Shown one piece after another: positions 7,326 to 34,377 of a DNA stretch of 64,000 nt (position 1 is its first letter; every line of letters starts with the position of its first letter). The stretch is from Sedimentisphaerales bacterium. GTDB lineage: Bacteria > Planctomycetota > Phycisphaerae > Sedimentisphaerales > SM23-30. Below the pieces are notes generated by a model. That model was not told the DNA's origin. It saw only the letters and a program-made list of their open reading frames with translations, and searched no databases. Both the position numbers and the translations under genes were made by a program. The stretch spans positions 137,097 to 201,096 of the forward strand of contig CAXXFK010000031.1 in assembly GCA_963663965.2 (NCBI GenBank). Reading direction: 5' to 3'.

Positions 7326-7328
7326 AGC

Positions 7329-14295: not shown

Positions 14296-14464
14296 GTGCC
14301 ATGAAATGGCGTAAGTGTTTTCGAAATAACATCTTACATCATATCGTCGTGTGCCAGTAATTATTTAGTACACACATTTAGCACACTTAATCTGTCAAAG
14401 GAACAACTCAAATACTCGTTTAAACATAAAAAAACGGGGTTTCTCTGCAATTTAACACGAGTAG

Positions 14465-17400
14465 AAATTCTTTTACCCCCCGCCCGAGTATTTCAGTACC
14501 CAAACTGGACGGGGATCATCTTTATCCACGGCAGCAATAATCATCTCAGAGCCCGGGTTGTCTTTGCCTGTACCTACATCACCCATACCATAACCCCTTT
14601 ATCCCAACACAGAGATGGATTTAAGGTATTCAGGAGTGGGATAGCCCTCAGCATGTACCTTGAGATTGTCATACACCTGCTCGTATGCGTTAACGATTTT
14701 GTCGAGCATGGCGGTTGAGCTTTGGTTCTTCCTCCAGCATCCGGTCGCAACAATCATACCTTCGACATCATATTCATTGGAACAAACCAAAAAGCGTACC
14801 CAAGATTGATCATCATCTGGGTCAGCGCCGAGATCGGAGGTGTTAATGATACGGGGTTTTTGCAGTATTGGTTTATCAGTTGGTATCGGCTCAATGCACC
14901 AGTCAGCACGTTCTTGGAATTCTTTCTGGAAGTCTTTACGCCACTTGGAGATACTTGACCCACCGGGACCATCAACATAATGATTCGTACCGGTTACGCG
15001 CTTGTATTGTCCACCCCAACTTTCCTGTGTAGGATCTTCTGGATCGTTGATGCCGCGATTAGCACTGACAAGGTACATAAACGCCGGTGAATCCCCTTCG
15101 CATACCCCGGTGCATCCCATGCCTTCATGAGGGTAAATATCACAGAGAGAGCCATGATTGTTACGGATGTTTTCATTGACCCATGCAAGGTTCGAAACCG
15201 GGTCACTGCCTCCGAAAAAGCCCTGATAGGTTTTTCTTGATTCGATAATAAACAACTCAGGAAATTCATCCATGAGCCAACTGTGCGTGCAGTCCTGATA
15301 AGCGATCAGGAAGATGCGAAGCTTGCGGAGAAATGACTTGAACTCTTCTTCGCTGCGATCATTTCGAACCCTCCAGATGGCCTGGGAAAGCTCACGCGGT
15401 GTGCCCCAGACCTCCGATCCATAACGGCCGTGGATCCGGTTTATCCGCGGCAGCTATGATTGCATTGGAGGCCTCACTGTCCTTGCCTTCGCCAATAATG
15501 TCAGAAACCGGTTGACTATTGCTCCCCCCATTGAATGCTTAAACCGTGATTATTACCCAGCCCCTCGTAGGTGACCGAACGCAGGTAGTCCGCTGTGGGA
15601 TACTCAGGATCATGGCTCTTTAAGTTCTCATACACCATCTCGTATCGGTCAAGTACGCCCAACATATTTATCTTATGAGCTTCCATGGCGAAGGTGCCTG
15701 CTCCGGCAACCAATCCCTCTACATCAAACTCATTGGCATACAACAGGAAACGAACCATCGACTGCATATCATCAGGATCGCTTTTTTGCGTGTTGGGTAC
15801 ATCGCCACTCTTTACGAACGCCTATTGGAGGGAAATCAGACATCATAATTACACGAAGTTTTCCGGGAGCACTTGATGATCGGTCAGTCGGGGCCGGATC
15901 GAATGGAGCAGTCAAGCGCGATTCAATGAAACTGGATATCTCATCATGAGGGGCCTTCTGGTGGAATCCAAATACACAAACTGCATCCGTTCCCGTATAA
16001 GCCCGCTTATCCTCATCCCTGCCGAAACTGAAGATTACCATATTCAGGCCTTGCCTCCAGCCTTCGTCCCCGGCGCTGTCAGGCCCGACATCCTTTACTC
16101 CGACATAAAAGACCTGGGGATCCTTCGGATCGCTATCTGCCAAATAGAAGAACGGCGAGGGGAACTTGTTTCCAAACTCCGGTTCAAGATATCCCAATCC
16201 GCCAGTTTTTGCACTCCCGGTGATTTCCCGTCCTTAAGGACATAGTAGTCCTTCTCGACTGAGACATCTCTGCTCTCCCCCAATGGGTCCTTCGTAGAGG
16301 AAAGCGTATTTTTTGTTTGCTTTCAGAACCTTTATCGCGGCGTGAGTTGTGAAGAAGTGATATTCCAACTCGTAATCTGAATTGGCGGATCTCATGATTA
16401 AGTGATCCCCTTCAAGCTTGTCGGTGAATGCGATATCATTGCCATTTGCATCCACCCAAAGTGTCTGGGCACCACTACTCCTTTGAGGATGGTCAAAATT
16501 ACCTTCCCCGAAATTCGGCCAACCCCGATACTCGTGTCTTCCACCCGTATTTGGAGATATGTTGAATCCCCTGTCCGCGTCATTTCCAATCCAATCATTT
16601 CCGGCTTGATCGAAAGCACTGCTGAAGCCAGACTTTCCCTGGGTCTCACCGTTTTCGAAGTACCAAGTACCTCCCGCCGCCGCAATTTTCCAACACATGT
16701 TGCCAAAGTGCTCGACCTTTGTCACCACGACTTTATCCGGATAAGGCATATAGGATGTCCCAGCCGCGGGCTCCTTTTCTTCTTTGTCAACCTTAACCGG
16801 ATCTGCCATGCTCTCTGCCACATTTGCAGCCAGTTGCAATTTTTGGCCGGACTGTGAAGCGATCTCATCGGCCTTAAGAGCACCATTTCCGTCTTTAGAG
16901 CTGCCAAAAATCTGCAAGGCGCGAATCTCACCGCGAAACTGACGATCCATGCCGTAGGCCTTCATGGTTTCGTTAAAGTTGCCAACCACAAGAGGTCCAA
17001 CATCACTATCAACCGGACCAGGATTATAAGATGTTTTTTGGTCCAGACTGACAGTGGATTGCCCGGGTGTGTCAGAGGGTGTGCTGAAATACCAGCTCAT
17101 ATTGTCGCTGGACGCTGTTGAATCATAGCTTACAGCAAAGAATGTCCATTTGCCAACCTGCAGCTTGCCGGCGGAACTGTCATTTTGAATCTGATCCGGC
17201 CATTCGTTAACAGACAAACGCATACGGCCATCGTTATGATGAACGAGGTCGATGCCGGATCGATTTTCCTTGAGGCAAAACAGGATTCGATTGCCGCCGT
17301 GGCCGATTTGGAGGCTATCGGGCTTCACCCATCCCATAATGGTAAAGGAACGCAGAACTTTCAAGCTTTCCATTGCATCTTCACCAACTTTAATCCACCC

Positions 17401-19353
17401 CCATGGGGCTCCATCGATAAGTTGAAATGAACCATCGCCGGCACGTTTTGCTGTACCTACGAACTTTACTGAAGGTGTATCTTTATCGTCAGCTATACCT
17501 ACATGTACAATAGGCTTAGCACTCACCTTGCTGTCTGTTTTCTTTAACTTGGCCCATGCCTTAGCTATATTTTCTGCAAACTGTTCTGCGTCACCGTCGA
17601 ACTGAATTACTGAAAGCCCTTTACCATCCCAGCTGCCCATAGTGGCTGGATCGTATCCGGAGATATAGTAGCCGGCTCCTTCGTAGTAGGTCACTGCTGG
17701 ATGGTCAGCCCAGGCTTTCTTTTGGCCTTTCTGTTCAATGAACATTGCTTTACCCTGCGTCAGGTTATGGGCTTCCATGGCTTTCAGCGTGGAATCTTCA
17801 TCAGTCCACTCCGTCCAGTTCACCACCAGATCCTCAGTTATGTGCGACTGCAACCAATAGGTATGGTCGGTCATTTTAGCATCAGGATATTGCGTCGAAA
17901 TGTATTCATACAGCCATTGCCTGAAAGATAGATTCGTACTGATCGTATCATTGCCCGTTGGTTTAAAGATTATCCTGCGGTAATCGCTAAGGTTATGCGT
18001 ACCATCATCAATAACCTCGCATATCAACATGAAAGCTCTTCCCACCGGAATCGGACGGGATATCTATCATGGCAACACTTGAGCTGCTGTTTGAGATATT
18101 GACATCATCAGTATATGTACCCGCTTCGGATAATACCCACCACTTGAAGGTCAGCTTGTCGTCATCCGGATCAAATGTATCAGATGCGTCGAGTGTGATA
18201 GTCGAACCCTCCTGAGGCCTTTTCGTAATTATAGCAATACCGTCGTCACCATCAATGACAATGACCGGATTCCGGTTACCTGCACCGTCTTTTGCCCAGT
18301 CCATTCGGGCTGCAAAGTTGTTAAATGTTGCCTGGTAAAAATATTGTTGATATTTTGAGGAAATGTTTCTTGCATTGCCGCTGTGGTTTTGATACGCATT
18401 GGTTGCGTTGTCCTTGCATTGACCAAATTCAAAATAACCGCCCCAGCCGACTTGATTTGGGATCTGCGGATCATTCAGTCCAGTAGGCATGAGATGAAGA
18501 AACGCGGGAGTATCACCTTCAACTCCATACTTATATTTCGGATACCTGTTGCCCAAATTGCCATGGCCCTGGATATGGTTTGATATTCATCCCATCTGCT
18601 TCTGCCGGTGCCATTCTGATAGCCCCACGCGGATTCATCCCAAATGAAAAACAGGTCCTTCTCAAACTCTTTGCGCATCCATTGGTGAGAACTTTCCGGC
18701 CAATTGATTACATTACCCGATTTTTGGGCTCCATCCTGATCCGTGATTGTATAGACGCGAATCTTGCTTAGAAAAGCTTTCAATTGTTCGGGGGTTCGCT
18801 CTTGCTGTACCTGCCAGCATGCCTGGGCAAGCGTGTTTCCTCCACCCCATACCGTTACCCAAATGGGACGATCATCTTCTTCATCAGCCAGTTCAATAAT
18901 TCTTTTGCTTCCATCGGAATTGTTATTTTCGCCGATATACTGCTGTCCCCTGTTTTTACTGCCTAACAGGATACGCTCTCTTAAATAATCCGGGCTCGGC
19001 CAGTATCCGATTTCCTGAGGCTCGGCATCGTGCAGATGTCCCTGCTGGTTGGAGCGTTTCATTAAGTTGGGTAAATCTTTTTCGTATAAATCAATCGTTT
19101 CCCGGATCAGATTCAGACCGGTATCTCCAGCATTGGCCCATACGCTCCAACCGGTTGAATGGATCAGAGCTTCTATTTCATACAAGTCGGCATGGACAAG
19201 AAGCCGAATCATGGATTCCATGTCGTCAGGTTCAACATTGTCGGGCGAGATATCTGTCAGCACAACAAGACGCGGTTTAAGCGGAGCTGCAATGGATGAA
19301 GCAGTTATCCCCAGGGAAAGCAGCATAAGCATCATTATTAAGTTGTTCTTCAA
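14465..19353 (-). CDS. Giant secreted multidomain protein (~1600 aa when joined): DUF1593 - Sde182-type C-terminal domain - unknown - LamG - unknown - DUF1593 - truncated DUF1593; several frameshifts
   Basis: Abutting ORFs 18475-19353, 18008-18556, 16234-18045, 15772-16197, 15516-15767 and 14599-15273 read continuously across frame changes. DUF1593 starts: [84 protein letters not shown] start with CGGAGA RBS. Confidence 0.75.
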
Positions 19354-19445
19354 TGTAATTTCTCCGTTAACAGTAGTTCAGTATTCACAGTTACTTTTGT
19401 GTTTCATCAACTGTATCGAGCATCTAACCATTAACTAGAGTTTAA

Positions 19446-19500
19446 TTAAGAATCCAGCAATTTCTTCCTTTATTTAAGAAACAATCTGTTGTATTCATAG
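19446..19500 (-). promoter_or_regulatory. Conserved 55-bp upstream element, copy 1
   Basis: + strand TTAAGAATCCAGCAAT-N24-CTGTTGTATTCATAG, 93 bp upstream of the DUF1593 polyprotein; near-identical copy at 24169. Confidence 0.65.
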
Positions 19501-19564
19501 GTCTAAACATAAAATGCATATCCCCGGCGGTTCAATTCTTTCAGGGCAAATGTACTCGGGAATT

Positions 19565-22500
19565 AGTTTACATTAATAACCACGCGACGATAGGCGTAAA
19601 GATTGGGAGAGCCATTGTCTCGCAGCGTTAAGATATATATAGATCGTCTTGCCCCCCGCATCAGACGGAACTGATACTGTTGCAGATGACGAAGTACTGC
19701 CCGAAATCGACACAGGGCTTTTATAGGAACTGGGTTCAGCGTAAACTGCCCATGAATAAACCAGTGAATTGCCGTCCGGGTCGCTGGAACCGGCTGCGCT
19801 GAGAGCAACGCTGGAACCGGCGGAGGCCGAGACGGTCAGCACTTGCCTTGTGCTGTCATCATTGACAACCGCAACAGGATGATGGTTGCAACTGGAGTAG
19901 TTGCTGGTTAAAGTCCAGTCCATGCGGGCGGCAAAATCATTCTCAATGGCGGTTTTCCAGCGACTTATCGAACTGCCGCCTTCCGAAGCATCGCCGTACA
20001 TATAGTATGGATCGTATGCCGATTCACCAGTGACCGCCGACATTCCTCGGCTGTTAGCCACTTTGGTCAGAATCATACGTCCGCCCCAACCGCCCCAATT
20101 AACATGCTCAGGATCGTTGAGGCCATTGAGCAACTGGTAGAAAAACGCAGGGGTGTCACCTTCGTAGGTCCACTCTTTTTCCGGGTATTGAGCCCCCAGC
20201 ACGCCGTGATTTTGGATGTTATTGTCATAATAACTATCGCTGGATTGCCAATTATAGACCCCCTTGAAGCGGATATAGAAAAGACTCGGAAAGGTTTTGG
20301 TCATCCAGGCCCCGGTTTCATCCTGTCCCAGGATGTCATACACCCGCAGTTTGCTCACAAATTGATCAACCTGGGCCGGGGTCCGCGTGTTCTTAACTTT
20401 CCACAGCGCCTGCGCCAGGGTGTTTCCACCGCCCCAGAAGTTAACCCAAACAGGGCGGGGGTCGTCTTTATCCACCGCGGCAATGATCAGTTCCGAACCG
20501 TCGCTGTCTTTACCTTCGCCAATCCCAGCCATACCATAACCGGTTTGACCCAGCTTGGAGATGGACTGCAAATATGCAAGGGTGGGATACCCCTCAGCAT
20601 GTACTATGAGTTTGTCATAAACCTGCCCATAAGCGTTCAGTCTGGGATTAAGCAGGTTGTTCATATTGGTTAAGGTCTGAGACTTTTTCCAGCAACTGGT
20701 CCCGACAATAATGCCTTCAATATCACACTCATTGGCCGTCACCAGCATGCGAACCAACGATTGCAGGTCATCGTTGTCGGCGCCAAGGTCGGTGGTGTTG
20801 ATCACCCGATGCTTCTGAAAAACGGGTCTTTCCCATAGCCAGTTTTGGCTGAGCACACTAAAATCTCTCATATTTACACAGCCGTCACCAGTAACATCGG
20901 TTATGGGGTCGCTGCATGACAGCCAATCGGCAGCCAGTTCAGTCAAATCATCGATATTAATTCTGTTATCGTCAGTAAACTCCGGGAAATCTGCTGATAT
21001 TGTCGTAAAACTTCGTGTCCCCGAAGCATAGGGAGTCGTCCCGTCATAGGCAATCACAGCCCAGTAATAGGTCGTGTCATTGTCCAATGCTTCTGCCGGA
21101 TCAAATGCTTCGGTCCCAACACTATAGCTGGGATTTTCGCTAACGACTGAATTGGTGCCAAGGAAAACCTCGTACGATGTGGGCGTATATGCCATTGGCG
21201 CCGTCCATTGTAAAGCGGTCACAACTGACACATCCTCCTGAACACTGGAAGGATAGATTAAAACAGGCAGATTCGGGTCCGGTTCTTGATTAAATTCAAT
21301 TTTAAAACCATTCATCACAAACCACGCCTCATTATAGGCCGTCGAATACGGCTGACAATCAAAGACAAGGGAAACATCCGAACCGTCAGAAACAAGCGTC
21401 GTTTCGAACTTCGCTACGCTGTCAAATGTCGTGGCGCTGCTGTTGGTACACTGAATATCTGTCGTCGTCACTGAACCGGTCGCATCATTGACCGTGACAT
21501 CGAATGTGCCAATATTTGCAGTCGGTTCTGTATCCGTATGGTATGACACCCAGGTATATTCGCCCGCCGGCAGGCCGCTGATCGTCAGCGTCAGAGGATC
21601 GCCGGCCGAACGGGTATCCGAGCCGATCCAGTCCTGCATCAGCGCTTCGGTCGCATCCTCATAGGCCTCCGGGCCCCGGTCGAGCATCTGCATCACCGCA
21701 TCCACCGCACCGGACGCCCAACTGGGAGTCACGCTGACGGTTGTTTCAAACACAGAATAGCTCTGCGTGGTAAAACTGCCTGAACTTTCATGACTGGCCG
21801 TATATGCCGCATAGTCACTCTGCACTGGGGAACCGGATGTGCCAAAATCAATCCGCAGGGTTTCACCCCCGACGGGAGTGTCGTTAATCGTGGTAAAACT
21901 CCAGGTCTCCTCGGACATATATCCAGTCGTACTGTCATAGGCAACGACGGCCCAATAATAAGTCGTTCCCAAGGCCAGCGGTGTCCCCGGTGTGTACTCT
22001 TCGGTGGATGCAAAATAAACCGGATTATTGGTGACTGTTGAGTCGGTTCCCAGATAGACATCATACCCAGTGGGAGTATAGGCCGTGGGTGATTCCCACT
22101 GCAACATGGGCAGGATTGATATATTGCCTTGGCCGTCCGACGGTGCTGCCAACACCGGAAGGTTCGGATTCGGAGGAGACACTTCCGGACCATAGACAAC
22201 AAGATCGTCAATGTAGATATCGACACCTGAGGCCGGTCCTTCAATGTAAACATAAAGCTCTTCATCAGTGATCTCTGCGGGAACAGTATAAGTTCCTGAA
22301 ATGTATGTCCAGCCGCTACTGTTAGCGGTACCCCCAATATGACCTGTCCAATTCCCATTGACTCTCCATGTGATAGAAATCGTCGAATCACCCGCGGTAC
22401 TGGTTCTAAAGTAACCTGACACATTATAGGTTGCCCCGGGCACTACTTTGTCATACAAATCCTGCTGCATGCCCTGGTAGGTTCCGGTTCTGCCGGTCGA

Positions 22501-22764
22501 AGCTCCGCACCAGGAACCGCCGTGAGGCGATGGTGTCTGTACACCGCTGACAGTGCTGCCGAAGTGGGGAACCCACGGGGATGCATCAGCTCCATTTTCA
22601 AATCCGGGATTGGCCAGGATATTCGTATCACCAAACGCCGGCAGGTTTAGCATCATTAGTAATACGGCTGCTATAAAAAGAGGGCTTCTCCATATATGCT
22701 TCGGTGAATAACACTTGCACATTGCGTGATTGGCATCACCCACCCAGGTAAACTTATTAAACAT
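19565..22764 (-). CDS. Secreted CBM4/9-like + Fn3-like repeats + dockerin-like + DUF1593 (nucleoside-hydrolase-like) protein; frameshift near the C-terminus
   Basis: NILANPGFENG...MQQDL...YIDD; two LQWxxPxAYTPTxYxVxLGT...TTYYWAV repeats; DVTGDGCVNMRDF; RVINTTDLGADNDDLQSLVRML...WGGGNTLAQ...EGDTP...WGGWGGR...DFAARMDW...NHHP. Confidence 0.85.
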
Positions 22765-22803
22765 ATGTCACCCCCTTAGGTTGCATTTAATTGACATTTT
22801 TGC

Positions 22804-24128
22804 GGTTCTTCCGAAAAATGAGTAGTTAATGTTGCAAAAAGAGAGACATGACTTTACTGTTTGAGGAAAAAAATAAAACCTCATATTAGGAGCTAAAGTC
22901 ATGTCCACAAGTATGTTGTATCATACTTTTGGTGTTCGAGGTGTTCAATACCAAAAGACAGAATATTTTTGCGGGCAAGAGCGTGATTCACGGCATCTTG
23001 CCGGCGGATAGTCTGCGTTGCCCTTGTTGTAACTCCCGTAATTTCATTTACTTCGGTCACAAGGCCCGGAGGTTTGCCATGGTACCCGCCGGTCTGCGTC
23101 AAATGGAGTTGCTTGTCACTATTCCCCGATTGAAATGTCTGGCGTGCGGGGCCATTCGTCAGCCTCATCTGCCATTTGCCGACCCCAAGAAGCATTACAC
23201 CCATGCGTTGGAACGGTATGTCATCGATTTATGTCAGGCGGCTTCCCTGCAAGAGGTGGCCCGACGGACCGGCTTAAGCTGGGATACCATCAAATCGATT
23301 CATAAGTCCTGGCTAGGTCGACGGTACCGAAAGATTTCCCTGAAAAAGGTTCGTTATCTGGGGATTGACGAATTGTATCTGGGCAGGAAAAGCAAATACA
23401 TCTCGCTGGTAACCGACCTGGAAAGCGGTCAAATTTTGCATATCGGCCAGGGCAAAGGCCAAGAGGCCCTGGTGGGATTCTGGGGGCGTGTCCGACGCAG
23501 CCGGGCGGTGATTGCCGCGGTGGCTACCGATATGGCCAGTGGTTTTATGACCAGTGTCCTGAAAGAACTGCCGCAAGCCAAACTGGTGCTGGACCATTTT
23601 CATCTGGTCAAATGGTTTAACGACAAACTGACCAGTTTACGCCGGGATTTGTACCGGGAGGCCGATACCATGGGCAAAGCGGTACTTAAAGGCAGCCGCT
23701 GGCTGCTGCTCAAAGCGCCGGAGAACCTTAAATCCCATGCCGATAGCGCCAAAGATGAACGGCACCGGTTGCAGGAGGCTCTGCAACTCAACCAGCCGCT
23801 GGCCACCGCCTATTACATGAAAGAACGGCTCCGTCTCCTTTTTGATGCGATCACGGCTCCGCTGGCTGAACAGGAACTTAAACGCTGGATCAGCCAGGCG
23901 CAAACCAGCGGGATTCGGATCCTGCTGGATGCCGCCAAACAACTGCAACTCTGGAAACCCTTCCTGCTCAATTGGTATGACCATCCCATCAGCACCAGCA
24001 AAGTCGAAGTCAATAACCGTAAAATCGGCCTCCTGCAACGAATGGCTCATGGCTACCGCGATCAGGAATACTTCTATCTCCGGATCCATCATATCCATAA
24101 CCAAAACTACTCATTAACCGGATGAGCC
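22804..24128 (+). mobile_element. ISL3-family insertion sequence, complete, with 8-bp target site duplication
   Basis: IRL GGTTCTTCCGAAAAATGAGTAGTT; IRR (reverse complement) GGCTCATCCGGTTAATGAGTAGTT; TSD ATTTTTGC at 22796-22803 and 24129-24136. Confidence 0.93.
22901..24125 (+). CDS. ISL3 transposase (one extra T at 22966-22970)
   Basis: MSTSMLYHTFGVRG after an AGGAG RBS; CPCC...CLAC zinc finger; GIDE, ATDM, LDHFHLV, EVNNRKI..QRMAHGYRD. Confidence 0.92.
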
Positions 24129-24168
24129 ATTTTTGCTTATAACAACACACCAATTTTAATAGTATAGC

Positions 24169-24223
24169 TTAAGAATCCAGCAATATCCTGCTGGATATAT
24201 GAAAATGCCTGTCGTATTCATAG
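24169..24223 (-). promoter_or_regulatory. Conserved 55-bp upstream element, copy 2, now separated from its gene by ISL3
   Basis: TTAAGAATCCAGCAAT-N24-CTGTCGTATTCATAG. Confidence 0.65.
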
Positions 24224-24477: not shown

Positions 24478-25344
24478 TCAGGTTGAAAGTCGATGGGCGT
24501 TTCGATACTCACGGGGAGTACAATGGCACAGCTGTTTGAAAGATGAATTGAATCTGCTAAGTGAATTGAAACCGGATTCCAAAGCTATTTCAAGAACCTT
24601 TTTGTTGGATGTAACAAGCAAACGTTGGGCATGCTGGACACGATGCTGAATGACAAAGTTATTTAATGTGATCCCAAAGGTTTTCTTGAAGATGTATGCC
24701 GCATAATCCGGGTGTAAATCAACTGATTGTGCGATATCTGAAAGATTAATTTTGTTTATATAATTTTGAGCAATGAATTTTGCCATGCTTTCAATTTTAC
24801 TGAAATTATAACTGCCGCTTGGTCTCATTGTGGGACCAGAAGGCAATTCCCCTGATTCTGTCTTGTTCTTTTCCAAGTTTTTTGCAAGGCGCAGAAGACG
24901 TGCTTTTATTTCAAGTAGTACTATTTCGTGAATTGCTGTCGAATCTTGATTAATATCTTGAAACCAATGTTCAAACAAGAGTTTATCATAAGAAGTAAAT
25001 GTTTCTACTTCCTGTATCAGTCGGCCATTTAGAATCAGGGTTGTGATTCTCTCTGGCAAGTCGAAATCCAGTACCCACGGCAAGGGAAGTGTTATGACAA
25101 AATAGGACTCCAAATCTTTATAATCCACAATCTGATGCGGTGTCGCTGCCCAAAACAATGCGAGTTTTCCACCTTCAATTGTGATCCGTTCTCCCCAAAA
25201 AAGGTATGTTAATTCACCTTTGGCAAAAAAGTTCAACTCGATTTCAGAATGCTTGTCAGGGCGATTCATCAATCTGGGTTCCCATTGTTCGCAGGTAAAG
25301 CCATATGGCGTAAATTCTTTTCTTTTTTGGTCGAAATGTTCCAT
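24478..25344 (-). CDS. AraC/MelR-like transcriptional regulator
   Basis: HSEIELN cupin, FWAATPHQ; C-terminal LHPDY..FKK..G..R..A..LL..IALESGFNSLSRF..TPREYR; divergent from the sugar operon. Confidence 0.93.
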   Translation of the reverse strand: MEHFDQKRKEFTPYGFTCEQWEPRLMNRPDKHSEIELNFFAKGELTYLFWGERITIEGGKLALFWAATPHQIVDYKDLESYFVITLPLPWVLDFDLPERITTLILNGRLIQEVETFTSYDKLLFEHWFQDINQDSTAIHEIVLLEIKARLLRLAKNLEKNKTESGELPSGPTMRPSGSYNFSKIESMAKFIAQNYINKINLSDIAQSVDLHPDYAAYIFKKTFGITLNNFVIQHRVQHAQRLLVTSNKKVLEIALESGFNSLSRFNSSFKQLCHCTPREYRNAHRLST

Positions 25345-25489
25345 AAATCTAAGTATATGATAAGTGTTTTAAGAAATCAAGGCAGAATGCCCTATTTATC
25401 TGTTGTTACAATGCAATTTATTACTATAATCAATCACTATATGAAGTTATTTTGCGTATTTTTCTAAATAAAGAGCAGGTGATCGTAAA

Positions 25490-26458
25490 ATGAAAAAAAA
25501 ACTAATGTTAAAAGGTCTGAGTGTCTTGATGGCTGTTGTCATGATGTGGTTGTCCGGTTGTGAGAAGAAAGGGCAAAAACCTCAGGAAACAAAAAGGATT
25601 GCAGTTGTTATTTCGACTTTGAATAATCCCTGGTTTGTAGTTCTGGGGGAAACCGCGAAGGCGAGGGCAGAGGAACTGGGCTATGAAGCGACTGTTTTTG
25701 ACTCAACAAACGATACAGCCCGGGAAACATCGCATTTTGAGAATATTATTGCCAGCGGCTACAGCGCCATTATTTTTAACCCAACAGATGCTGACGCTTC
25801 TATTTTCAATGTAAAGAAAGCAAAAAAAGCCGGAATTCCCGTGTTCTGCGTGGACAGGGAGATTAATTCCAATAAAGACGCAACGTCACAGATTTTATCT
25901 GACAATTACTCCGGATGTGTGGCTATAGGCGCTTTTTTCGTCAAAGAAGTTGGCGAAGAAGGGGAATATATCGAATTGCTCGGTTTATTGGGGGACAACA
26001 ACACGCAGAATCGGTCGGATGGTTTTCACTCCGTTGTGGACAAGTATCCCGACCTCAAAATGGTTGCCCAGCAAACGGCCGGATTCGACCGGACGAAGGC
26101 ATTCGATGTTACATCGGCGCTCCTTGGGGATCATCCGGACATTGACGCTATTTTCTGCGGCAATGATGCTATGGCTATGGGTGCGTATCAGGCACTTGTT
26201 TCTGCCGGAAAAGACAAATCTGTCAAGGTGTTTGGTTTTGACGGTGCTGCGGATGTTTTACAGTCTATTGCAGAAGGTAAAATCAAAGCCACCGGTATGC
26301 AGTTTCCCAAACGAATGGCTCGAACTGCGGCAGAATTTGCAGACGAATACATTAAGGGAAAGCGTGATTTCGATCAGAAAATTCCTGTACCGGTAGAATT
26401 AGTCACGATAGAAAATATTGATAAATATCACGACTATGACAAAAAGGCATCAGAATGA
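25490..26458 (+). CDS. Sugar ABC transporter substrate-binding lipoprotein (RbsB-like; apiose-binding candidate)
   Basis: Lipobox [38 protein letters not shown]. Confidence 0.9.
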
Positions 26459-27108
26459 AGCAATGGTTTTCCCGGAAAATGGCAATTTGGCTGTTCTTGG
26501 GCGGCTCAATCATAGGTGTGTTTATCACATTTCCACCTTTTCGTATCGTATCTCTGGAAGAGAACAGAAACAGGTTAAATGAAGGTGTGTTTGATCCACT
26601 TAAATTTGCCCGGCAGTTTTGGCAGAACGATTTACCTTCAACATTTGAGAAGGCGTTTGATGCTCAACAAGTGTTAAATGTTATGCGTAATAATCCTAAA
26701 GAGGCCAGAACTCGATACGGACGAGTGATAGGGTTGGGTGGCCCCTGTTATTATTACTTGAATGGGGCTGGCACGATAACAGCGATTGAACCCAGGCAGA
26801 TTAAGGTCCGTTTGGATGTGGAAGATACCGGCGCCGAGATTATCCTCATGACATCAATGGTCTTCGGTAACGAGATTCTTGATGCGACAAACATCATCAG
26901 CAGAAACCAATTCCAAAAAACGAACGATTATAATGCGGTCAGCGCCGAACTTAATAAGATCGTGGAGACGCAGCTTACAGAACCGTTTTTACAGCAAATA
27001 AAATTGGGCGAAACTATCCATTTCATCGGCTGTTCAACGGGTATGACGGATGAGGATTCACTGGTTCCGATGCGTCTGGTGCCTGTCAAATTGGAGACCA
27101 TCCGGTGA
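26455..27108 (+). CDS. DUF2291-like membrane-anchored periplasmic protein
   Basis: N-terminal [22 protein letters not shown]...[18 protein letters not shown]; sits between the binding protein and the ATPase. Confidence 0.75.
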
Positions 27109-28649
27109 ATGCAGTTAAAGACCAAATTACGAATTCCTTATCAGTCATTCTGGAGGCAAAAAATATTGAGAAATCGTTTCCCGGTGTTCATGCTCTCAAG
27201 CATGTTGACTTTTGTGTTTATCGCGGCTGTCTGAATGCTTTGGTTGGCGAAAATGGAGCAGGCAAGTCGACGCTGATGAAAGTGCTTGCGGGCATTTATC
27301 AACCCGATTCAGGCAGTATCTTTCTGGATGGCAATCCAATCCAATTCAATGATTCGCGGCAGGCCCGGCAGCACGGCATCGCCGTCATTCATCAGGAGCT
27401 TAGCTTAATTCCATATTTAAGCATCGCTGAAAATATTTTTCTTGGATATGAATTCCGGAACCGGTTTGGATTGGTTGACTATAGTAAAATGCATCGTGAA
27501 GCATCTCGTCTTCTGGAAATGCTGGATCTTCATATTAAACCCGACCGTCTTGTATCCTCCCTAAGCGTAGGACAGCAGCAGATTGTCGAAATCGCCCGAT
27601 CCCTTTCAATGGATGCCAATATTATTATCATGGATGAGCCGACATCAGCGATCAGTGAGCATGAAATCGACATTCTTTTCGGATTGATTGAAAGTTTAAA
27701 ACATCAGGGCGTGTCATTTATTTATATTTCCCATAAGTTGGACGAATTGTTCAGAATTGGAGACACTATCACTGTCATGCGTGATGGTGAGGTGATCGGT
27801 AAAGATTCGTTATCCAATTTGAATCATGATGCTGTTGTCCGCATGATGGTAGGCCGTGATTTAAAAGATCTTTATCAGCGAGAGGCATCCGTGACACACG
27901 AAGAGGCCCTTCGCGTGGAACAGATATGCCTGGATAATAGTCGTCACGAAGGGTGTTCAGTCAAGAATGTCAGTTTTCATGTGAACCGGGGTGAGGTTCT
28001 CGGCATTTTTGGGCTAATGGGTGCCGGGCGAACGGAACTGCTGGAGGCAATTTTCGGTTGTCATCCGAAACGATCAAGCGGAGATATTTTTATTCAGCAC
28101 GAAAAGCTGTGTTTGCAGTCCCCGAAAGATGCCATTAAGGCGGGGATTGTTCTGGCACCGGAGGACCGGAAAGAGCAGGGGCTTATCCTTGGTATGACTG
28201 TGGTGGAAAACACGACTTTGGCAAATCTGCAAAAAGTACAGCGATTTGGGTTTATCCAGACACAAGCTGAGGCACGAATGGCTGATATATATATCGAACG
28301 ATTAAAAATAAAAACCCCGTCCGGAAAGCAGAAAGTAAAAAATCTCAGCGGAGGTAACCAGCAGAAGGTAATTTTAGGAAAATGGCTGGCCACACAGCCC
28401 CTGGTCCTGCTGCTGGATGAACCCACACGGGGAATTGATATCAACGCAAAAAGAGAAATTTACCGTCTCATTGATGAACTGACAGAGCAGGGTTTGGCTG
28501 TGGTGATGGTTTCATCTGAGTTACCTGAAATTCTCGGGCTCTCTGATCGTATATTGGTTATGTCTGAGGGACAAAAGACGGCCGAATTCTCGCGAGCCGA
28601 AGCCACGGAAGAGGCCCTTTTAAATGCTGCACTGCCTAAAAGTGCATAA
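27105..28649 (+). CDS. Sugar ABC transporter ATP-binding protein (RbsA-like, two ATPase domains)
   Basis: GENGAGKSTL, MDEPTS, PEDRK, LSGGNQQKV, DEPTRGID. Confidence 0.96.
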   Translation: MNAVKDQITNSLSVILEAKNIEKSFPGVHALKHVDFCVYRGCLNALVGENGAGKSTLMKVLAGIYQPDSGSIFLDGNPIQFNDSRQARQHGIAVIHQELSLIPYLSIAENIFLGYEFRNRFGLVDYSKMHREASRLLEMLDLHIKPDRLVSSLSVGQQQIVEIARSLSMDANIIIMDEPTSAISEHEIDILFGLIESLKHQGVSFIYISHKLDELFRIGDTITVMRDGEVIGKDSLSNLNHDAVVRMMVGRDLKDLYQREASVTHEEALRVEQICLDNSRHEGCSVKNVSFHVNRGEVLGIFGLMGAGRTELLEAIFGCHPKRSSGDIFIQHEKLCLQSPKDAIKAGIVLAPEDRKEQGLILGMTVVENTTLANLQKVQRFGFIQTQAEARMADIYIERLKIKTPSGKQKVKNLSGGNQQKVILGKWLATQPLVLLLDEPTRGIDINAKREIYRLIDELTEQGLAVVMVSSELPEILGLSDRILVMSEGQKTAEFSRAEATEEALLNAALPKSA

Positions 28650-28662
28650 GTCGAAAGGTGAC

Positions 28663-29640
28663 ATGGAAAAAAGTACAGTAAAAACTATAATTTCTCGATT
28701 ACAATTGCCATTGGTTATTCTGATCATGGCAACAGTATTGAGCATACTCAGTCCTACATTTCTGAAACCGACGAATATTCAGAACATTCTTCAGCAGATA
28801 TCAATTAATCTATGTCTATCGATTGGAATGACCCTGGTGATTTTGACTGGAGGAATTGACCTTTCGGTTGGCTCGATACTGGCTTTCTCCGGAATTCTGA
28901 TGGCGGGATTTCTCAAAAATGGTATCGAGATACCCGCTCTTAACATCGCAATTCAGTTCACTTTTTATGGAGCTGTACTGGCAGGATTGCTCACAGGACT
29001 TCTGTCAGGAGCCATTAACGGATTTGCAATTACTCGGTTTAAAATCCCTCCTTTTGTAGCAACATTAGGAATGCTGAGTATTGCCCGAGGGCTCACTAAA
29101 CTATGGACACGAGGCGAACCGATTACAAATTTAGGCCCCAGATTTGAGTACCTCGCTGCAAACTCGTTGTTCGGCATCAGTTTCATAGTATGGATTCCTG
29201 TGATACTTATTATTCTGTTTATTATTGTAACCCGCAGGACCTGTTTCGGCAGGCATTTATATGCTGTCGGAGGAAATGAACAGGCAGCAGCATTATCCGG
29301 CGTGCGTGTTGACCGGATTAAGCTATGGGCTTATGCACTGAGTGGTTTGCTGTCAGCTGTCGGCGCACTGCTTTTAACCGCGAGATTGAATGCAGCTACC
29401 GTTGTCGCGGGTGAAACATATGAACTGGAAGCGATTGCAGCCGTCGTCATCGGTGGGACTTCACTCTCGGGAGGGCGAGGTTCGATCTTTGGCACGGTAT
29501 TGGGATGCCTTGTGATTGGCATCCTTGCGAATGGTTTGGTGTTGATGGGTGTTCGTGAAGAATTGCAGTTAGTTGTCAAGGGCGGTGTTATTTTACTGGC
29601 TGTCGCTTTTGATAAATTACAAAATGAATATTCAACTTAG
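28663..29640 (+). CDS. Sugar ABC transporter permease (RbsC-like)
   Basis: GGIDLSVGS, IPPFVATLG, AVGGNEQAAALSG, AAVVIGGTSLSGG. Confidence 0.95.
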   Translation: MEKSTVKTIISRLQLPLVILIMATVLSILSPTFLKPTNIQNILQQISINLCLSIGMTLVILTGGIDLSVGSILAFSGILMAGFLKNGIEIPALNIAIQFTFYGAVLAGLLTGLLSGAINGFAITRFKIPPFVATLGMLSIARGLTKLWTRGEPITNLGPRFEYLAANSLFGISFIVWIPVILIILFIIVTRRTCFGRHLYAVGGNEQAAALSGVRVDRIKLWAYALSGLLSAVGALLLTARLNAATVVAGETYELEAIAAVVIGGTSLSGGRGSIFGTVLGCLVIGILANGLVLMGVREELQLVVKGGVILLAVAFDKLQNEYST

Positions 29641-29658
29641 ACTTTATTAGGAGTTTAT

Positions 29659-31083
29659 ATGAGAATTATAAACAAGAAAATTATCTTTGGATTGATCATT
29701 GGAACAAGGAACATCTTCAATGCCGAATTGGCATCAGCAGAACGTACCAAAATACTGACGCTGCTGGATAAGCTCGGATTCGGATATGTTATACCCGATG
29801 AACATGCAACGCCTGCAGGAGCGATTGAAACTCGAACTGACGCGAAGATATGCGCGGAATTATTTAAGAAGAATCGAGATGCAATTGACGGAGTCATTGT
29901 TGTGTTGCCCAATTTTGGTGATGAACTCGGAATTGTAGCAACACTGGAAATGGCAAAACTCAATGTGCCGATACTGGTTCAGGCATGTAATGATGAGGTT
30001 GATAAGGTCGACATAACAAGTAGGCGCGATGCTTTCTGCGGTAAGATTTCTGTCTGCAACAACCTCTATCAGTATAATATTCCGTTTTCTGATACAACAG
30101 AGCACACATGTGATATTAACAGCGATGTGTTTGAAAAAGACATTCGGCAGTTTGCTGCTGTTTGCCGTACTGCAAAAGGTCTTCGAAATGCAAGGATCGG
30201 TGCTTTCGGAACTCGCCCGGCTGCTTTCCAGACAGTACGATACAGTGAAAAAATTCTCCAAGCATCGGGGATTACAGTCGTTCCTGTAGACCTTTCTGAA
30301 ATCATAAACAGAGCCAGTTCTATGAATGTCGATGATGCAGCAGTACAGGATAAACTGGCACAAATCAAGGCTTACGGGAAAATACCAAAAGAAATTTTAC
30401 CTGAAAGTGTACTGCGTCAAACTAAGCTGTCAGTCGTATTTGATGAGTTGATGGAAGAACACGAACTGGATGCCAGTGCGATTCAATGTTGGGATTCTAT
30501 CGAGAATAACTATGGTTGTGCAACCTGCCTGTCCATGTCCATGATGGGTGAGCGTTTGATGCCCAGCGCCTGTGAAACAGACATAACCGGGGCTGTTTCA
30601 ATGTATGCTCTCCTGCTTGCAGGGGGCTTTTCTCCGGGACTTTTGGATTGGAACAACAATTTTGGAAAAGAACCAAATAAATGTGTTTGCACACACTGCA
30701 GCAATTATCCTAAAAGCTTCATGGGAAATGAAGTCGAGATTTCAAAATTAGATGTTTTGGGGACTGTCATTGATCGAGAAAAATGTTTTGGAGCGATTAA
30801 AGGTAAGGTCGCTCCGGGTTCTATGACTTATTTCAGGGTATCTACAGACGATACAAACGGCAATATTAAGTCTTATTTGGGTCAGGGACAATTTACTGAT
30901 GATGCATTTGGGATGGATGGTGGTATTGCAGTATGCCAGGTCAGTAATCTTAGAGCGCTGCTTGGCCATATCTGCGAAAACGGCTATGAACATCATGTAG
31001 CGATGACCCGCTGTCACTGTGCGGATGTGATCTATGAAGCTGTGACGAAGTATCTGGGATGGAAGTTATATTATCACAAATAG
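29659..31083 (+). CDS. L-fucose/L-arabinose isomerase-family protein
   Basis: PNFGDE, RRDAFCGKISV, AIQCW, ACETD, THCSN, GYEHHVAM. Confidence 0.85.
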   Translation: MRIINKKIIFGLIIGTRNIFNAELASAERTKILTLLDKLGFGYVIPDEHATPAGAIETRTDAKICAELFKKNRDAIDGVIVVLPNFGDELGIVATLEMAKLNVPILVQACNDEVDKVDITSRRDAFCGKISVCNNLYQYNIPFSDTTEHTCDINSDVFEKDIRQFAAVCRTAKGLRNARIGAFGTRPAAFQTVRYSEKILQASGITVVPVDLSEIINRASSMNVDDAAVQDKLAQIKAYGKIPKEILPESVLRQTKLSVVFDELMEEHELDASAIQCWDSIENNYGCATCLSMSMMGERLMPSACETDITGAVSMYALLLAGGFSPGLLDWNNNFGKEPNKCVCTHCSNYPKSFMGNEVEISKLDVLGTVIDREKCFGAIKGKVAPGSMTYFRVSTDDTNGNIKSYLGQGQFTDDAFGMDGGIAVCQVSNLRALLGHICENGYEHHVAMTRCHCADVIYEAVTKYLGWKLYYHK

Positions 31084-31096
31084 GAACATAAACACA

Positions 31097-31927
31097 ATGG
31101 TTGACAATACACTGATCATAAAATCAATCCAGTATCGAATTCGTATATTGGAATATATTAAAAAAGCGAAGGCCGGTCATACCGGCGGAAGTTTATCCTG
31201 TGTGGACATCTTAAATGTTCTGTATAATCGGGTATTGAATGTTTCTCCTGAAACTGTAAACGACCCGCAGCGAGACCGTTATGTCCAGAGTAAGGGGCAT
31301 TCGGTTGAGGCATTATATGTCGTTTTGGCAGACAGAGGATTTTTCCCGGAATCAGACCTGGAAACACTGTGTAAGTTCAAATCGCCTTATGTTGGACATC
31401 CTACACGTAAAATTAATGGAATCGAACAAAATACGGGCGCTTTGGGACATGGCCTGGCATTCAGTACGGGAGTTGCCTTAAGCGGTAAAATGGATGGGCT
31501 GAGCTTTCGCGTTTTCACATTGCTGGGCGATGGTGAATTGGCAGAGGGTTCTAATTGGGAATCGATGATGACTGCAGCACATTATCGTCTGGATAATTTA
31601 ACTGCTGTCATTGACCGTAATCAACTGCAGATAACCGGTCACACTGAGGATGTCTGTGCATTGGAAAACCTGCGTGACAAGTTCACTGCTTTCGGATGGT
31701 CTGTAAGACATGTTGACGGGCACGATACAAGCGCTCTTAGAGATATTTTATGTACAGTACCATTTGAATCAGGCAAGCCCACTATGATTATCGCCAATAC
31801 CGTCAAGGGCAAAGGAGTGAGTTTTATGGAGCATGCTGTTAAATGGCATCACGGCGTACCCGACGACCAGCAATATGAATTGGCTATTACAGAACTCAAG
31901 TCGCGACTGCGGGAGGTGAGCGTATGA
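31097..31927 (+). CDS. Transketolase N-terminal subunit (apulose-4-phosphate transketolase A candidate)
   Basis: GHTGGSLS, SKGH, GHP, TGALGHGL, GDGELAEGSNWE, DRN, KWHH. Confidence 0.92.
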   Translation: MVDNTLIIKSIQYRIRILEYIKKAKAGHTGGSLSCVDILNVLYNRVLNVSPETVNDPQRDRYVQSKGHSVEALYVVLADRGFFPESDLETLCKFKSPYVGHPTRKINGIEQNTGALGHGLAFSTGVALSGKMDGLSFRVFTLLGDGELAEGSNWESMMTAAHYRLDNLTAVIDRNQLQITGHTEDVCALENLRDKFTAFGWSVRHVDGHDTSALRDILCTVPFESGKPTMIIANTVKGKGVSFMEHAVKWHHGVPDDQQYELAITELKSRLREVSV

Positions 31928-32874
31928 GTATGAATGCAACTGAAAGCTGTAAAGCAAATTTGGAAGTGTTTGCTGAGACACTGCTGGGTATTGCCCGAAC
32001 GAATAAGGATGTATTGGTGGTTACGAGCGATTCACGCGGTTCAGGGAAATTGAAACCTTACGCCGAAGCATTACCGGATCAAATCATTGAAGTTGGTATT
32101 GCCGAGCAAAATCTTGTTGGCGTAGCCTCCGGATTAGCATCTGCCGGCAAGATTGTCTATGCAGTATCACCGGGCAGTTTTCTGACAACACGGTCCCTGG
32201 AGCAGATTAAAAATGATGTATGTTATTCAGATCAACCCGTTAAATTAATTGGCATCAGTTCCGGCGTCAGTTATGGTGCGTTGGGTTCTACGCACCATTC
32301 ACTGCATGATTTGGCAGCTATTCGTGCAATTCACAATTGTACCATTATTGTCCCGGCGGATAACTTTGAAACAGCAGAAGCGATCAAAGCGGTAGCAGAC
32401 ATGCCTCATCCGGTCTTTATTCGTTTTGGTAAGAGAGTTCTGCCTCATCTCCACAAGCCTGGCACCTCATTCATGGTTGGTAAATCCCTGCTTGTTCGCC
32501 CAGGTGATGATGTCGCATTTATTGCCACAGGTGAATCCGTTGTGCAGGCGGCATTGGCCTCTGAAGCATTGGAGCATAAAGGTATTAACGCACGCGTGGT
32601 CAGTATGCACACCATTAAGCCTTTGGACGAAGAGGTTGTATTAAAAGCAGCCAAAGAATGTCGAGCTGTCATTACGGTCGAGGAACATAGCTGTTACGGC
32701 GGCCTTGGAGAAGCGTGTGCATCGCTACTGATGCAGGCGGGGATATCAGTGCCTTTTAAAATCGTGGGCTTTCCCGACGAGGATACGATCACGGGAAGTC
32801 AATTGGACATCATGGGGTATTACGGCATCTCGCAAGAAGGCCTTATCCAAACTGCAAAATCTATGTTGAAATAG
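31924..32874 (+). CDS. Transketolase C-terminal subunit (apulose-4-phosphate transketolase B candidate)
   Basis: EVGIAEQN, EQIKND, GSTHHS, TIKPLD, TVEEHS..GGLG. Confidence 0.92.
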   Translation: MSMNATESCKANLEVFAETLLGIARTNKDVLVVTSDSRGSGKLKPYAEALPDQIIEVGIAEQNLVGVASGLASAGKIVYAVSPGSFLTTRSLEQIKNDVCYSDQPVKLIGISSGVSYGALGSTHHSLHDLAAIRAIHNCTIIVPADNFETAEAIKAVADMPHPVFIRFGKRVLPHLHKPGTSFMVGKSLLVRPGDDVAFIATGESVVQAALASEALEHKGINARVVSMHTIKPLDEEVVLKAAKECRAVITVEEHSCYGGLGEACASLLMQAGISVPFKIVGFPDEDTITGSQLDIMGYYGISQEGLIQTAKSMLK

Positions 32875-32877
32875 GAA

Positions 32878-34377
32878 ATGTTCGTGAAAAAATATATTCT
32901 TGCTATTGATCAGGGGACAAGTTCAACAAAGGCCGTAATATTTGACACTGAAGGCCGAATCGTTGCCAAAGGCACTGAGCCGCTGGCTTCATATTATCCG
33001 CAACCTGGTTTTGTCGAACAGGATCCTTTGGAATTATATCAAAATGTATTGTCGGCGATAGAATCCTGCTTGGACATGTTTCGCGCCGAGATATCTGAGG
33101 ATCTGAGTCAAATAGCTACATGCGGTATAAGCAATCAACGGGAAACCTTCTGTTTGTGGAACGCAGATGGAGCCCCGATACATCCTGCTATCGTCTGGCA
33201 ATGCAAGCGATCAGTAGATATCTGCAAAAGCCTGAAAGACTCTTCGTTGGAACAGGAAATAAATAAGCGTACCGGATTAATTGCTGACCCCTATTTTTCT
33301 GCAAGCAAGTTAATCTGGCTCTGTGAAAACGACAGCAAAATCAAATCTGCCGTAATCGCAGGAGATGTATTTTTTGGAACAGTAGACACCTGGCTGCTTT
33401 ATAAGTTTACAAACGGTCAGCGCTATTATACCGATTATACCAATGCTTCACGCACACTATTCTTCAATATTGATAATCTGGAGTGGGACAATTATCTTTT
33501 GGAACATTTTGGACTATCAGGATTGAAACTCCCCCAGGTCAGACCATCCTCATTTGATTTTGGTACAACTGATTTTGATGGTTTATTGTCTTTGTCAATT
33601 AGTATAAACGCAATGATCGGAGATTCGCATGCTGCAGCTTTTGGCGAGGGATGTTTTTCTCCGGGAACAGCCAAGGCAACATTGGGAACCGGGTGCTCAA
33701 TTTTATTAAATACAGGGAGCAAACGAGTCGAATCGACCAATGAAATGATGACTACGATCTGCTGGAGTATGGGAAATCGTGTGGATTATGCAATTGAAGG
33801 GATTATTGTAACCTGCGGTGCAACCATCGTTTGGCTGAAAGATAACTTAGGACTGCTGAGTCGAAGCGAAGACAGTGAGAAAATGGCTCTATCGGTTCAA
33901 GATACAAACGGGGTGTATTTAATCCCCGCTTTTAATGGTCTCGGAGCCCCTCATTGGAAAATGGATGCAAGAGCCGTGATCTCAGGATTAACGCTGGGGT
34001 GCAATCGCAACCATATTGTACGGGCTGCATTGGAGTCGATACCGTATCAGATTATGGATGTGATTACTGCAATGGAGACATCCAGTAATATCCCTTTAGA
34101 GCAATTACGAATCGACGGAGGCATTAGTCAAAATAAATTTCTTATGCAGTATCTTAGTGATTTGCTCCAAAAGGAAATCACCAATATCGGGATGCAGGAT
34201 GTCTCAGCGTTTGGTGCGGCGTGCCTGGCAGGATTACAGAAGGGTGTGTATCGGGACATAGAACAGCTTCCGAATAATGTCCTGAATGAGATCAAATATA
34301 TTCCCTCCAATGATAAAACGGTCAGTGTAATAAAAAAGAATTATCAAGGATGGCTGAAAGAAATAACAAAACTATGA
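32878..34377 (+). CDS. FGGY carbohydrate kinase, glycerol-kinase-like (apulose kinase candidate)
   Basis: AIDQGTSSTK, NQRET, DPYFSASK, TDYTNASRT, KATLGTG, IDGG; has GDSHAA where GlpK has GDQQAA. Confidence 0.88.
   Translation: MFVKKYILAIDQGTSSTKAVIFDTEGRIVAKGTEPLASYYPQPGFVEQDPLELYQNVLSAIESCLDMFRAEISEDLSQIATCGISNQRETFCLWNADGAPIHPAIVWQCKRSVDICKSLKDSSLEQEINKRTGLIADPYFSASKLIWLCENDSKIKSAVIAGDVFFGTVDTWLLYKFTNGQRYYTDYTNASRTLFFNIDNLEWDNYLLEHFGLSGLKLPQVRPSSFDFGTTDFDGLLSLSISINAMIGDSHAAAFGEGCFSPGTAKATLGTGCSILLNTGSKRVESTNEMMTTICWSMGNRVDYAIEGIIVTCGATIVWLKDNLGLLSRSEDSEKMALSVQDTNGVYLIPAFNGLGAPHWKMDARAVISGLTLGCNRNHIVRAALESIPYQIMDVITAMETSSNIPLEQLRIDGGISQNKFLMQYLSDLLQKEITNIGMQDVSAFGAACLAGLQKGVYRDIEQLPNNVLNEIKYIPSNDKTVSVIKKNYQGWLKEITKL

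Follow-up and report, generated by a model that had tools for sequence, protein, structure and literature searches.

Within a 64,000-nucleotide stretch of a Sedimentisphaerales bacterium genome (contig CAXXFK010000031.1; hereafter the window), a genomic island carries two minus-strand genes, A and B, with DUF1593 (PF07632) domains beside a sugar uptake and catabolic operon and its AraC-type regulator. Gene content indicates that the operon very probably serves apiose. More tentatively, at slightly under even confidence, we propose that DUF1593 proteins are exported, Ca2+-dependent O-furanosidases that release D-apiofuranose, which would make the island a complete apiose-utilisation module. The exported enzymes would act on plant glycans or glycosides, and the free apiose would enter through an ATP-binding cassette (ABC) transporter with its DUF2291 lipoprotein, then be isomerised, phosphorylated and split by a transketolase. 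AraC may control both arms, the DUF1593 genes and the operon. The association of DUF1593 with apiose genes is real and passes controls, and it involves a minority of the family.

Pfam profile search placed four PF07632 regions on the minus strand, in genes A and B. Each has the aspartate cluster that a sequence-only reading of the window had described (20767-20793, 19222-19257, 15768-15840 and 14812-14838). That reading saw two modular proteins with four DUF1593 domains; the four regions stand, but gene B is not an open frame as assembled and its fourth domain is half-length. The only intact domain of the four is that of gene A, which scores 290 bits across the full profile; the gene B pieces score 49-188 bits, all above the curated cut-off of 26.8. 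The fourth domain breaks off at profile position 124-125, and none of the frames resumes it between there and 13701. Apart from CBM4_9, PF07632 and PF21027, the parts of gene A listed in Table 1 are a by-eye reading, as are the signal peptides of both genes. Gene A has a frame change near 19634, within its last ~20 residues.

The model of the intact domain (pLDDT 96.6) is 61% identical to PDB 2YHG over 390 modelled residues and superposes on it with Z 56.6, TM 0.95 and a root-mean-square deviation (rmsd) of 1.2 Å over 383 residues, the C-terminal β-sandwich included. 2YHG is the C-terminal region of Saccharophagus degradans Sde_0182 (PF07632 plus PF21027; Hehemann et al. 2011), a protein of the same family in which carbohydrate-binding modules precede a nucleoside-hydrolase-like Ca2+ domain and a β-sandwich; the window differs in having several domain copies beside a sugar catabolic operon. 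A furanose role for this family was proposed in 2011 (Hehemann et al. 2011, as relayed in PMC8910321). The sequence-only reading was right to call DUF1593 nucleoside-hydrolase-like and overlooked both the structure and the proposed role. Its suggested comparison with nucleoside hydrolases recovered their fold, with Z scores of 16-17.4 to eleven entries and rmsd values of 3.2-3.5 Å over ~235 residues. DUF1593 shares with these enzymes (IU-NH, IAG-NH, RihA-C; PF01156) the fold, an N-terminal Asp cluster and a downstream Asp. In contrast, identity is 9-13%, the cluster reads D..DD rather than DxDxxxDD, and the DUF1593 proteins are exported and modular and have an extra C-terminal domain.

Asp7, Asp13, Asp14 and Asp218 are conserved to at least 90%, with a spacing that differs from the DxDxxxDD fingerprint, and the pocket-type residues Gln162, Asp163, Glu216 and Asp218 are invariant or nearly so. 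An EGD motif occurs in 125 of 138 domain rows and KMGD or similar in 10, the rest having no match or a variant. All EGD and MGD rows have Gly at the position of the catalytic His, an equivalence drawn by motif rather than superposition; nucleoside hydrolases of group I have His there and those of group II Trp. According to the review PMC8910321, Ca2+ in nucleoside hydrolases is chelated by O2'/O3', the acid is the His that precedes the last Asp, and the O-glycoside 4-nitrophenyl riboside is cleaved efficiently. The Ca2+-diol reasoning of the sequence-only reading holds up against this chemistry and the fold. By analogy, the Asp cluster and the Asp of the EGD motif would hold Ca2+, which would grip the cis O2/O3 diol and activate water, and the conserved Glu just before the Gly may protonate the glycosidic oxygen. 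Of Sde_0182 the same review reports that Ca2+ is retained, that there is no activity on nucleosides and that its presumed role is that of a furanose-interacting module. Replacement of the nucleobase-activating His by Gly fits the reported lack of nucleosidase activity.

These observations also bear on a different view, in which DUF1593 is a non-catalytic module that binds apiose through its furanose cis-diol and targets apiosylated glycans for glycoside hydrolase family 140 (GH140) and other enzymes. The review calls Sde_0182 catalytically inactive and furanose-binding (PMC8910321), the general-acid His of nucleoside hydrolases is absent, DUF1593 is fused to many different catalytic domains, and binding would explain the gene linkage equally well. 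However, DUF1593 often makes up an exported protein of 430-490 residues on its own, and a locus can hold as many as five paralogues. Behind the carbohydrate-binding modules of gene A and of a Streptomyces relative (L116), it is the sole candidate catalytic domain, and a purely binding role sits poorly with the near-invariance of Gln162, Asp163, Glu216 and Asp218. We regard this view as unlikely. Hydrolase activity of DUF1593 is a well-posed prediction to which we give a little less than an even chance.

The operon has the order sugar-binding protein (SBP), DUF2291, ATPase, permease, isomerase, transketolase N- and C-terminal subunits, and FGGY kinase (25490-34377). It and the AraC gene, both of which the sequence-only reading placed in the island, are intact open reading frames. 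The window holds counterparts of seven of the ten genes of the Escherichia coli SE15 apiose cluster, at identities of 23-47%. Growth on apiose is reported for E. coli strains with that cluster (PMC13001218). The same source gives a published screen threshold of 40% identity, which only the AptA homologue and the ATPase of the window operon reach. A nucleotide search of the transketolase-kinase stretch against E. coli genomes found no match.

The non-oxidative transketolase pathway for D-apiose was reportedly described by Carter et al. (2018). Like that pathway in E. coli ST131 (ApsI, AplK, AptAB), the window combines an ABC transporter with DUF2291, an FGGY kinase and a two-subunit transketolase; it differs in its L-fucose-isomerase-family isomerase, its AraC regulator and the attached exported DUF1593 genes. 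In Bacteroides, a protein of the fucose-isomerase type (PF02952) takes the role of apiose isomerase. Close homologues of the window isomerase that carry a name (76-80%) belong to Planctomycetes, Sedimentisphaerales and Anaerohalosphaeraceae among them. In a survey of the best 80 of 308 metagenome loci with this isomerase (37 loci of at least 10 kb), blastp found a GH140 homologue in 10 of 80. No other glycosidase neighbours the isomerase as often, and GH3 (5) and GH78 (4) come next (41 of 55 cluster representatives scanned). The blastp count is used instead of the profile count of 11 of 80 because the profile was partly built from isomerase loci and would be circular. GH numbers are attached here to the corresponding Pfam names. 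Orthologues of the AraC regulator (64-72%) stand beside the isomerase in seven loci and homologues (39-46%) beside DUF1593 in four.

Two further gene types recur in these isomerase loci. DUF4432 proteins, candidate apiose mutarotases, adjoin the isomerase in 5 of 80 loci (L061:4808-6010, L056:7825-9015, L196:9260-10537, among others) and also occur in the Bacteroidota locus G304. In 15 of 80, a ureide-permease-like transporter comes after the isomerase (for example L090:8180-9235 and L197:478-1497); where the ABC system is missing, it is a candidate for apiose uptake.

Alternatively, the operon could serve D-ribose or D-arabinose, as in the rbs type of Thermotoga, with DUF1593 acting as an O-ribofuranosidase or similar enzyme. 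The closest solved relative of the SBP is the T. maritima ribose-binding protein 2FN8, at 372 bits versus 210 for 4RY0 and 5IBQ, and the T. maritima rbs operon likewise contains a transketolase. Sequence comparison of the SBP does not separate ribose from apiose binders; we take the 5IBQ structure to hold apiose. The T. maritima operon is ribose-induced and is annotated with the transketolase and two predicted D-arabinose enzymes (PMC3750489). The D-arabinose label, however, is a 2013 prediction that predates descriptions of the apiose pathway. Ribokinase and RbsR belong to the T. maritima rbs regulon, and the window operon has neither, nor an RbsD gene. Kinase, two-subunit transketolase and DUF2291 together are the gene set of the validated apiose cluster, and GH140-like genes are the commonest glycosidase neighbours of the isomerase. 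A ribose or D-arabinose operon is improbable, and apiose remains the favoured substrate.

The sequence-only reading had named a lack of DUF1593 enrichment near apiose genes as its main refuting outcome. Enrichment was found in several phyla with glycosidase controls near zero, but it is not family-wide and co-occurrence in the phylum of the window is lacking. Among the best 80 of 581 GTDB loci, picked by likeness to the window domain and scored for linkage within 10 kb, the operon occurs in five (Streptomyces, Micromonospora, Terriglobus, KSB1 and Bryobacterales), a GH140-like gene in six and either in ten. Fifty of the genomes behind these loci were checked, and 15 encode the isomerase; these 15 hold 39 DUF1593 copies, of which 10, from 5 genomes, are no more than 10 kb away from it. 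Controls in the same genomes gave 0 of 68 for GH29, 2 of 58 for GH43 (2 of 13 genomes) and 2 of 44 rows for PF13204. Three of the five positive genomes were already known as such from the GTDB loci, independence does not hold for copies of one genome, and every count is depressed by assembly fragmentation.

DUF1593 genes are co-directional inside or directly against the operon in five loci (G304, G328, G341, G303 and G565). Table 1 gives the gene order in four of these and in a fifth locus, G340 (82 of 138 called genes scanned across the five tabulated loci). Operon-adjacent copies fall in five other phyla by the labels of the tool (Actinomycetota, Acidobacteriota, KSB1, Bacteroidota and Balneolota), six with that of the window, and GH140-like neighbours of DUF1593 add Pseudomonadota and Planctomycetota. 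Among 400 evenly drawn Bacteroidota, the phylum of G304, DUF1593 occurs in 39 genomes, the isomerase in 14 and both in 8, adjacent in 3. DUF1593 is present in 8 of 14 isomerase-positive genomes versus 31 of 386 negative ones (odds ratio 15, p 8e-6, overstated by kinship). Among 300 genomes of the window's own phylum, GH140 occurs in 6 of 17 with DUF1593 versus 17 of 283 others. In the G303 locus, a KARI-like gene and a GntP permease (L200:3832-6209) lie 5 kb from the DUF1593-apiose operon; the former may be an ApnO-like apionate enzyme.

Several counts weigh against a general link between DUF1593 and apiose. Of the 80 GTDB loci, 70 have neither the operon nor GH140. Counted per genome, DUF1593 near the isomerase (5 of 15) does not clearly beat the GH43 control (2 of 13; p 0.40). 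The isomerase is lacking in 31 of the 39 DUF1593-positive Bacteroidota, although this does not mean an inability to use apiose, since oxidative apiose routes were not scored. Most DUF1593 copies in Bacteroidota have GH43, GH51, GH127, GH11, GH29, CE15-like, esterase or housekeeping genes as neighbours, many of these being xylan/arabinan enzymes (86 of 235 neighbours scanned). In the window's phylum, DUF1593 occurs in 17 and the isomerase in 11 of the 300 genomes, with a single overlap, on different contigs. The operon was found in none of 20 regions covering 21 of the 24 DUF1593 matches there (G146:C162, G193:C692 and G218 omitted), and a GH140-like neighbour in one of them (G130). Conversely, 1 of the 80 isomerase loci has DUF1593, and the two further DUF1593 copies of the genome itself lie away from apiose genes. 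Among 102 long relatives, DUF1593 is most often fused to PF22244, a CE15-like esterase domain (15 of 102: P0013, P0014, P0033, P0038, P0041 and ten more), which an apiose role does not account for, and GH43 and GH29 are fused in seven each. GH140 as the dominant fusion partner was rejected on these counts. As a separate observation, eight related Acidobacteriaceae loci (L161, L176, L183, L187, L189 and L192-L194) have DUF1593 beside an ATP synthase operon, in shared clusters with no sugar genes.

PF13204, the Pfam family of GH140, is fused to DUF1593 in 5 of the 102. Compared with the GH140 of this genome, these fused domains reach only 23-26% identity and are best called 'apiosidase-like'. 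The GH140 apiosidase BT1012 has the proposed substrate and genomic company in common with DUF1593, although it belongs to a separate Pfam family, and is active on the Apif-GalA bond of rhamnogalacturonan II (RG-II) (bioRxiv 10.64898/2026.03.13.711244). No PF13204 match was found among the window proteins scanned, in line with the sequence-only reading, which found no GH140 there; elsewhere the genome has matches on contigs C22 and C36, one of them strong. Three gene B modules recur in the GH140-like fusion P0004, among them the LamG module (Table 1), and gene B domain 1 shares a clade with one P0004 domain.

A quick IQ-TREE tree of the 138 domain rows, two window rows being less than half length, distributes the window DUF1593 domains among three clades. 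The intact domain falls together with Streptomyces L116 and Micromonospora L117 and L118 (support 96), and two of these three adjoin the operon. Copies linked to the operon or to GH140 are spread over many clades, and single loci mix clades as the window does. Apiose linkage as the mark of one clade was therefore rejected. The mixture of clades within a locus fits one substrate class with several linkage specificities, although it is not proof; the paralogues probably differ in the linkage or aglycone on which each acts.

A broader furanosidase family, with some clades acting on apiose and others, possibly including some window domains, acting on other hemicellulose or glycoside furanosides, would account for the many members that lie among xylan/arabinan or housekeeping genes. 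The deep clades, including a 10-row clade with KMGD in place of EGD, point the same way, as does an Aspergillus niger member co-expressed with carbohydrate-active enzymes (CAZymes) on wheat straw (PMC5294722). The scatter of operon- and GH140-linked copies over many clades argues against such a division. So does stereochemistry: the diol of apiose is cis and that of arabinofuranose trans, ill-suited to the Ca2+ site of nucleoside hydrolases. We consider the broader family doubtful, marginally more so than the binding module.

The state of gene B raises another question. As assembled, it has seven frame changes, near 18583, 18026, 16270, 16205, 15812, 15526 and 15411, and a TAA codon at ~14599. 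Pairing of the DUF1593 genes with the operon could thus be incidental or dead here, the genes being decaying CAZyme cargo beside an unrelated operon in an island rich in insertion sequences (IS). Besides these lesions and the truncation, an ISL3 element lies close upstream of gene A (Table 1), the nearest operon relatives (L037 and L039) have no DUF1593 within 10 kb, and frameshifts are rare elsewhere, with four sites in the ~136 kb tested, three in this locus and one outside. Read evidence points the other way. One base at the 18026 break is absent from contigs of run X1 (depth ~3, possibly the source sample) and X3, which come from two separate studies. The listed X1 pieces (the longest only) bridge 91% of 15818-22833, and the breaks at 19634, 18583, 16270 and 16205, whose positions are approximate, all fall in the unbridged 9%, with 15812 at its edge. 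Confinement of the breaks to unbridged stretches fits uncorrected assembly errors at low coverage. These results suggest that most gene B frameshifts are assembly errors, a reading that covers the breaks from 15812 to 18583. Intact relatives with a similar module order exist (P0008, P0009 and P0028), and gene B is probably intact in the organism, the last half-domain excepted. The same pairing recurs in unrelated phyla. A simple pseudogene was rejected on the read evidence, and an incidental or dead pairing is very unlikely.

The unnamed domain of gene B (~300 residues) has 237 relatives among 50%-cluster representatives. A stand-alone homologue from a DUF1593 locus, L119, was modelled (pLDDT 90.9) and matches galactose mutarotase-like proteins, at best with Z 17.5 and an rmsd of 2.9 Å over 208 residues. 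Atlas matches of the domain to named families were all below 0.9. The fused domain may interconvert the anomers of released apiose, a lead only, since the fold is also non-catalytic in many glycosidases and lyases. Separately, fusion of this domain with DUF1593 is seen in the window and in at least 2 of 150 listed relatives, and two stand-alone copies occur around one DUF1593 locus (L119:3100-4050 and L119:12506-13342).

Prior work covers the family, its structure and an unspecific role in furanose recognition or turnover; the apiose assignment is new as far as the literature was searched, and searches by title and abstract found no paper linking the DUF1593 family to apiose. GH140 is the only bacterial apiosidase family met in those searches, and the family of 2YHG, whose structure dates from 2011, still lacks a substrate. 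At best an even bet, and we lean slightly below that, DUF1593 would constitute an unclassified GH family and the first natural O-glycosidases on the nucleoside-hydrolase fold. Its Ca2+ would select the apiose cis-diol, Glu would replace the His of nucleoside hydrolases as the acid, and paralogues would divide the terminal apiosyl linkages of apiogalacturonan, apiosyl glycosides and RG-II fragments. If true, there would be a second, Ca2+-dependent apiosidase family and a function for a domain present in ~10% of sampled Bacteroidota and reported in A. niger. The nucleoside-hydrolase fold would be shown working as an O-glycosidase, and tools would follow for RG-II, duckweed and seagrass pectin, and apiosyl aroma precursors.

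Table 1. Features of the window, and gene orders at DUF1593 loci of other genomes (last five rows; TK, transketolase subunit; DUF, DUF1593)
Feature	Position	Strand	Remarks
tmRNA 3'-end copy, left att-like site	14268..14295	+	27/28 bases match tmRNA end
21-nt direct repeat	14368..14388	+	partner 37308-37328
Gene B, broken as assembled	14476..19353	-	signal-like N-terminus, DUF1593, Sde0182_C, unnamed β domain, LamG, mutarotase-fold domain, short-type DUF1593, half DUF1593
Gene B half DUF1593 domain	14476..14853	-	profile 1-125 of 268; internal TAA near 14599; end ~90 nt from left repeat
Gene B DUF1593 domain 2	14887..15840	-	SDFPP..DPDD type; frame changes near 15812, 15526, 15411
Gene B unnamed domain	15890..16775	-	no Pfam match; compensated frameshift pair near 16270/16205
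LamG/concanavalin-like module, gene B	16846..17520	-	51-59% identity to module of GH140-like fusions P0004, P0072, P0074
Gene B DUF1593 domain 1	18431..19272	-	[12 protein letters not shown] type; frame change near 18583
Gene A	19573..22764	-	signal-like N-terminus, CBM4_9, two repeated β domains flanking unnamed domain, dockerin-like repeat, DUF1593, Sde0182_C
Intact DUF1593 (PF07632) domain, gene A	20077..20808	-	Asp cluster 20767-20793; EGDTP 20149-20163
ISL3 insertion sequence	22804..24135 (about)	+	between DUF1593 genes and AraC; 40 nt upstream of gene A
AraC/MelR-type regulator	24478..25344	-	divergent from operon
Sugar-binding protein	25490..26458	+	32% to E. coli SE15 apiose-cluster SBP
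DUF2291 lipoprotein	26455..27108	+	sole copy in genome; weak E. coli cluster match (E 0.001)
ABC ATPase and permease	27105..29640	+	43% and 38% to E. coli SE15 apiose cluster
L-fucose-isomerase-like protein (PF02952)	29659..31083	+	presumed apiose isomerase
Two-subunit transketolase	31097..32874	+	47% and 38% to E. coli AptA and AptB
FGGY kinase	32878..34377	+	37% to E. coli AplK; best AplK match in genome
IS21 and IS66 transposase genes	34543..36905	+	right end of island
tmRNA 3'-end copy, right att-like site	37488..37544	+	48/57 bases match tmRNA end
G304 locus			DeoR-FGGY-isomerase-transporter-TK-TK-DUF-DUF, flanked by two GH140 and three more DUF1593
G328 locus			TK-DUF-DUF-DUF-FGGY
G341 locus			SBP-isomerase-DUF-DUF
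G303 locus			DUF-isomerase-TK-TK-SBP-DUF2291-ABC
G340 locus			GH78 adjoining strong GH140+DUF1593 fusion

The island lies at a transfer-messenger RNA (tmRNA) site, with the tmRNA 3' end duplicated at both boundaries, which bears out the att-like ends of the sequence-only reading. The tmRNA gene itself lies 16.5 kb ahead of the window. No integrase family was found among the scanned open reading frames of the island or upstream, where short or broken frames were only partly scanned. Rfam and ARAGORN searches of the window gave no match, and a promoter scan was at chance level (7 versus 5.7 ± 2.3). The genome has 14 near-full, near-identical ISL3 copies, one of them just after the tmRNA gene.

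Islands stand in tandem downstream of the tmRNA (also G000:C31:120203-120553), each closing with a tmRNA 3'-end copy; a further repeat, of 21 nt, is found a little inward of it. A loose contig end at 14388 continues into sequence like that from 37329 onward; it is possibly an empty att site, the aligned part perhaps being just the 21-nt repeat, and was not used. The first tmRNA island (L011, G000:C31:118000-137500 plus window 1-8302) carries RpiB, transaldolase, a broken phosphorylase, acetate kinase, phosphoketolase and an F-type ATP synthase operon, and its GC content is higher than that of the apiose island. Directly left of the apiose island, a minus-strand gene (10920-13637) encodes a 905-residue DUF6055 protein with hexapeptide repeats and a below-cut-off Svx/AvrXca match. 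To the right, 42639-58708 holds a CAZyme cluster of GH29, GDSL, GH5, GH51, GH43, GH127 and a GH51+GH127 fusion, in which two GH51 genes form an inverted repeat at 73-79% identity.

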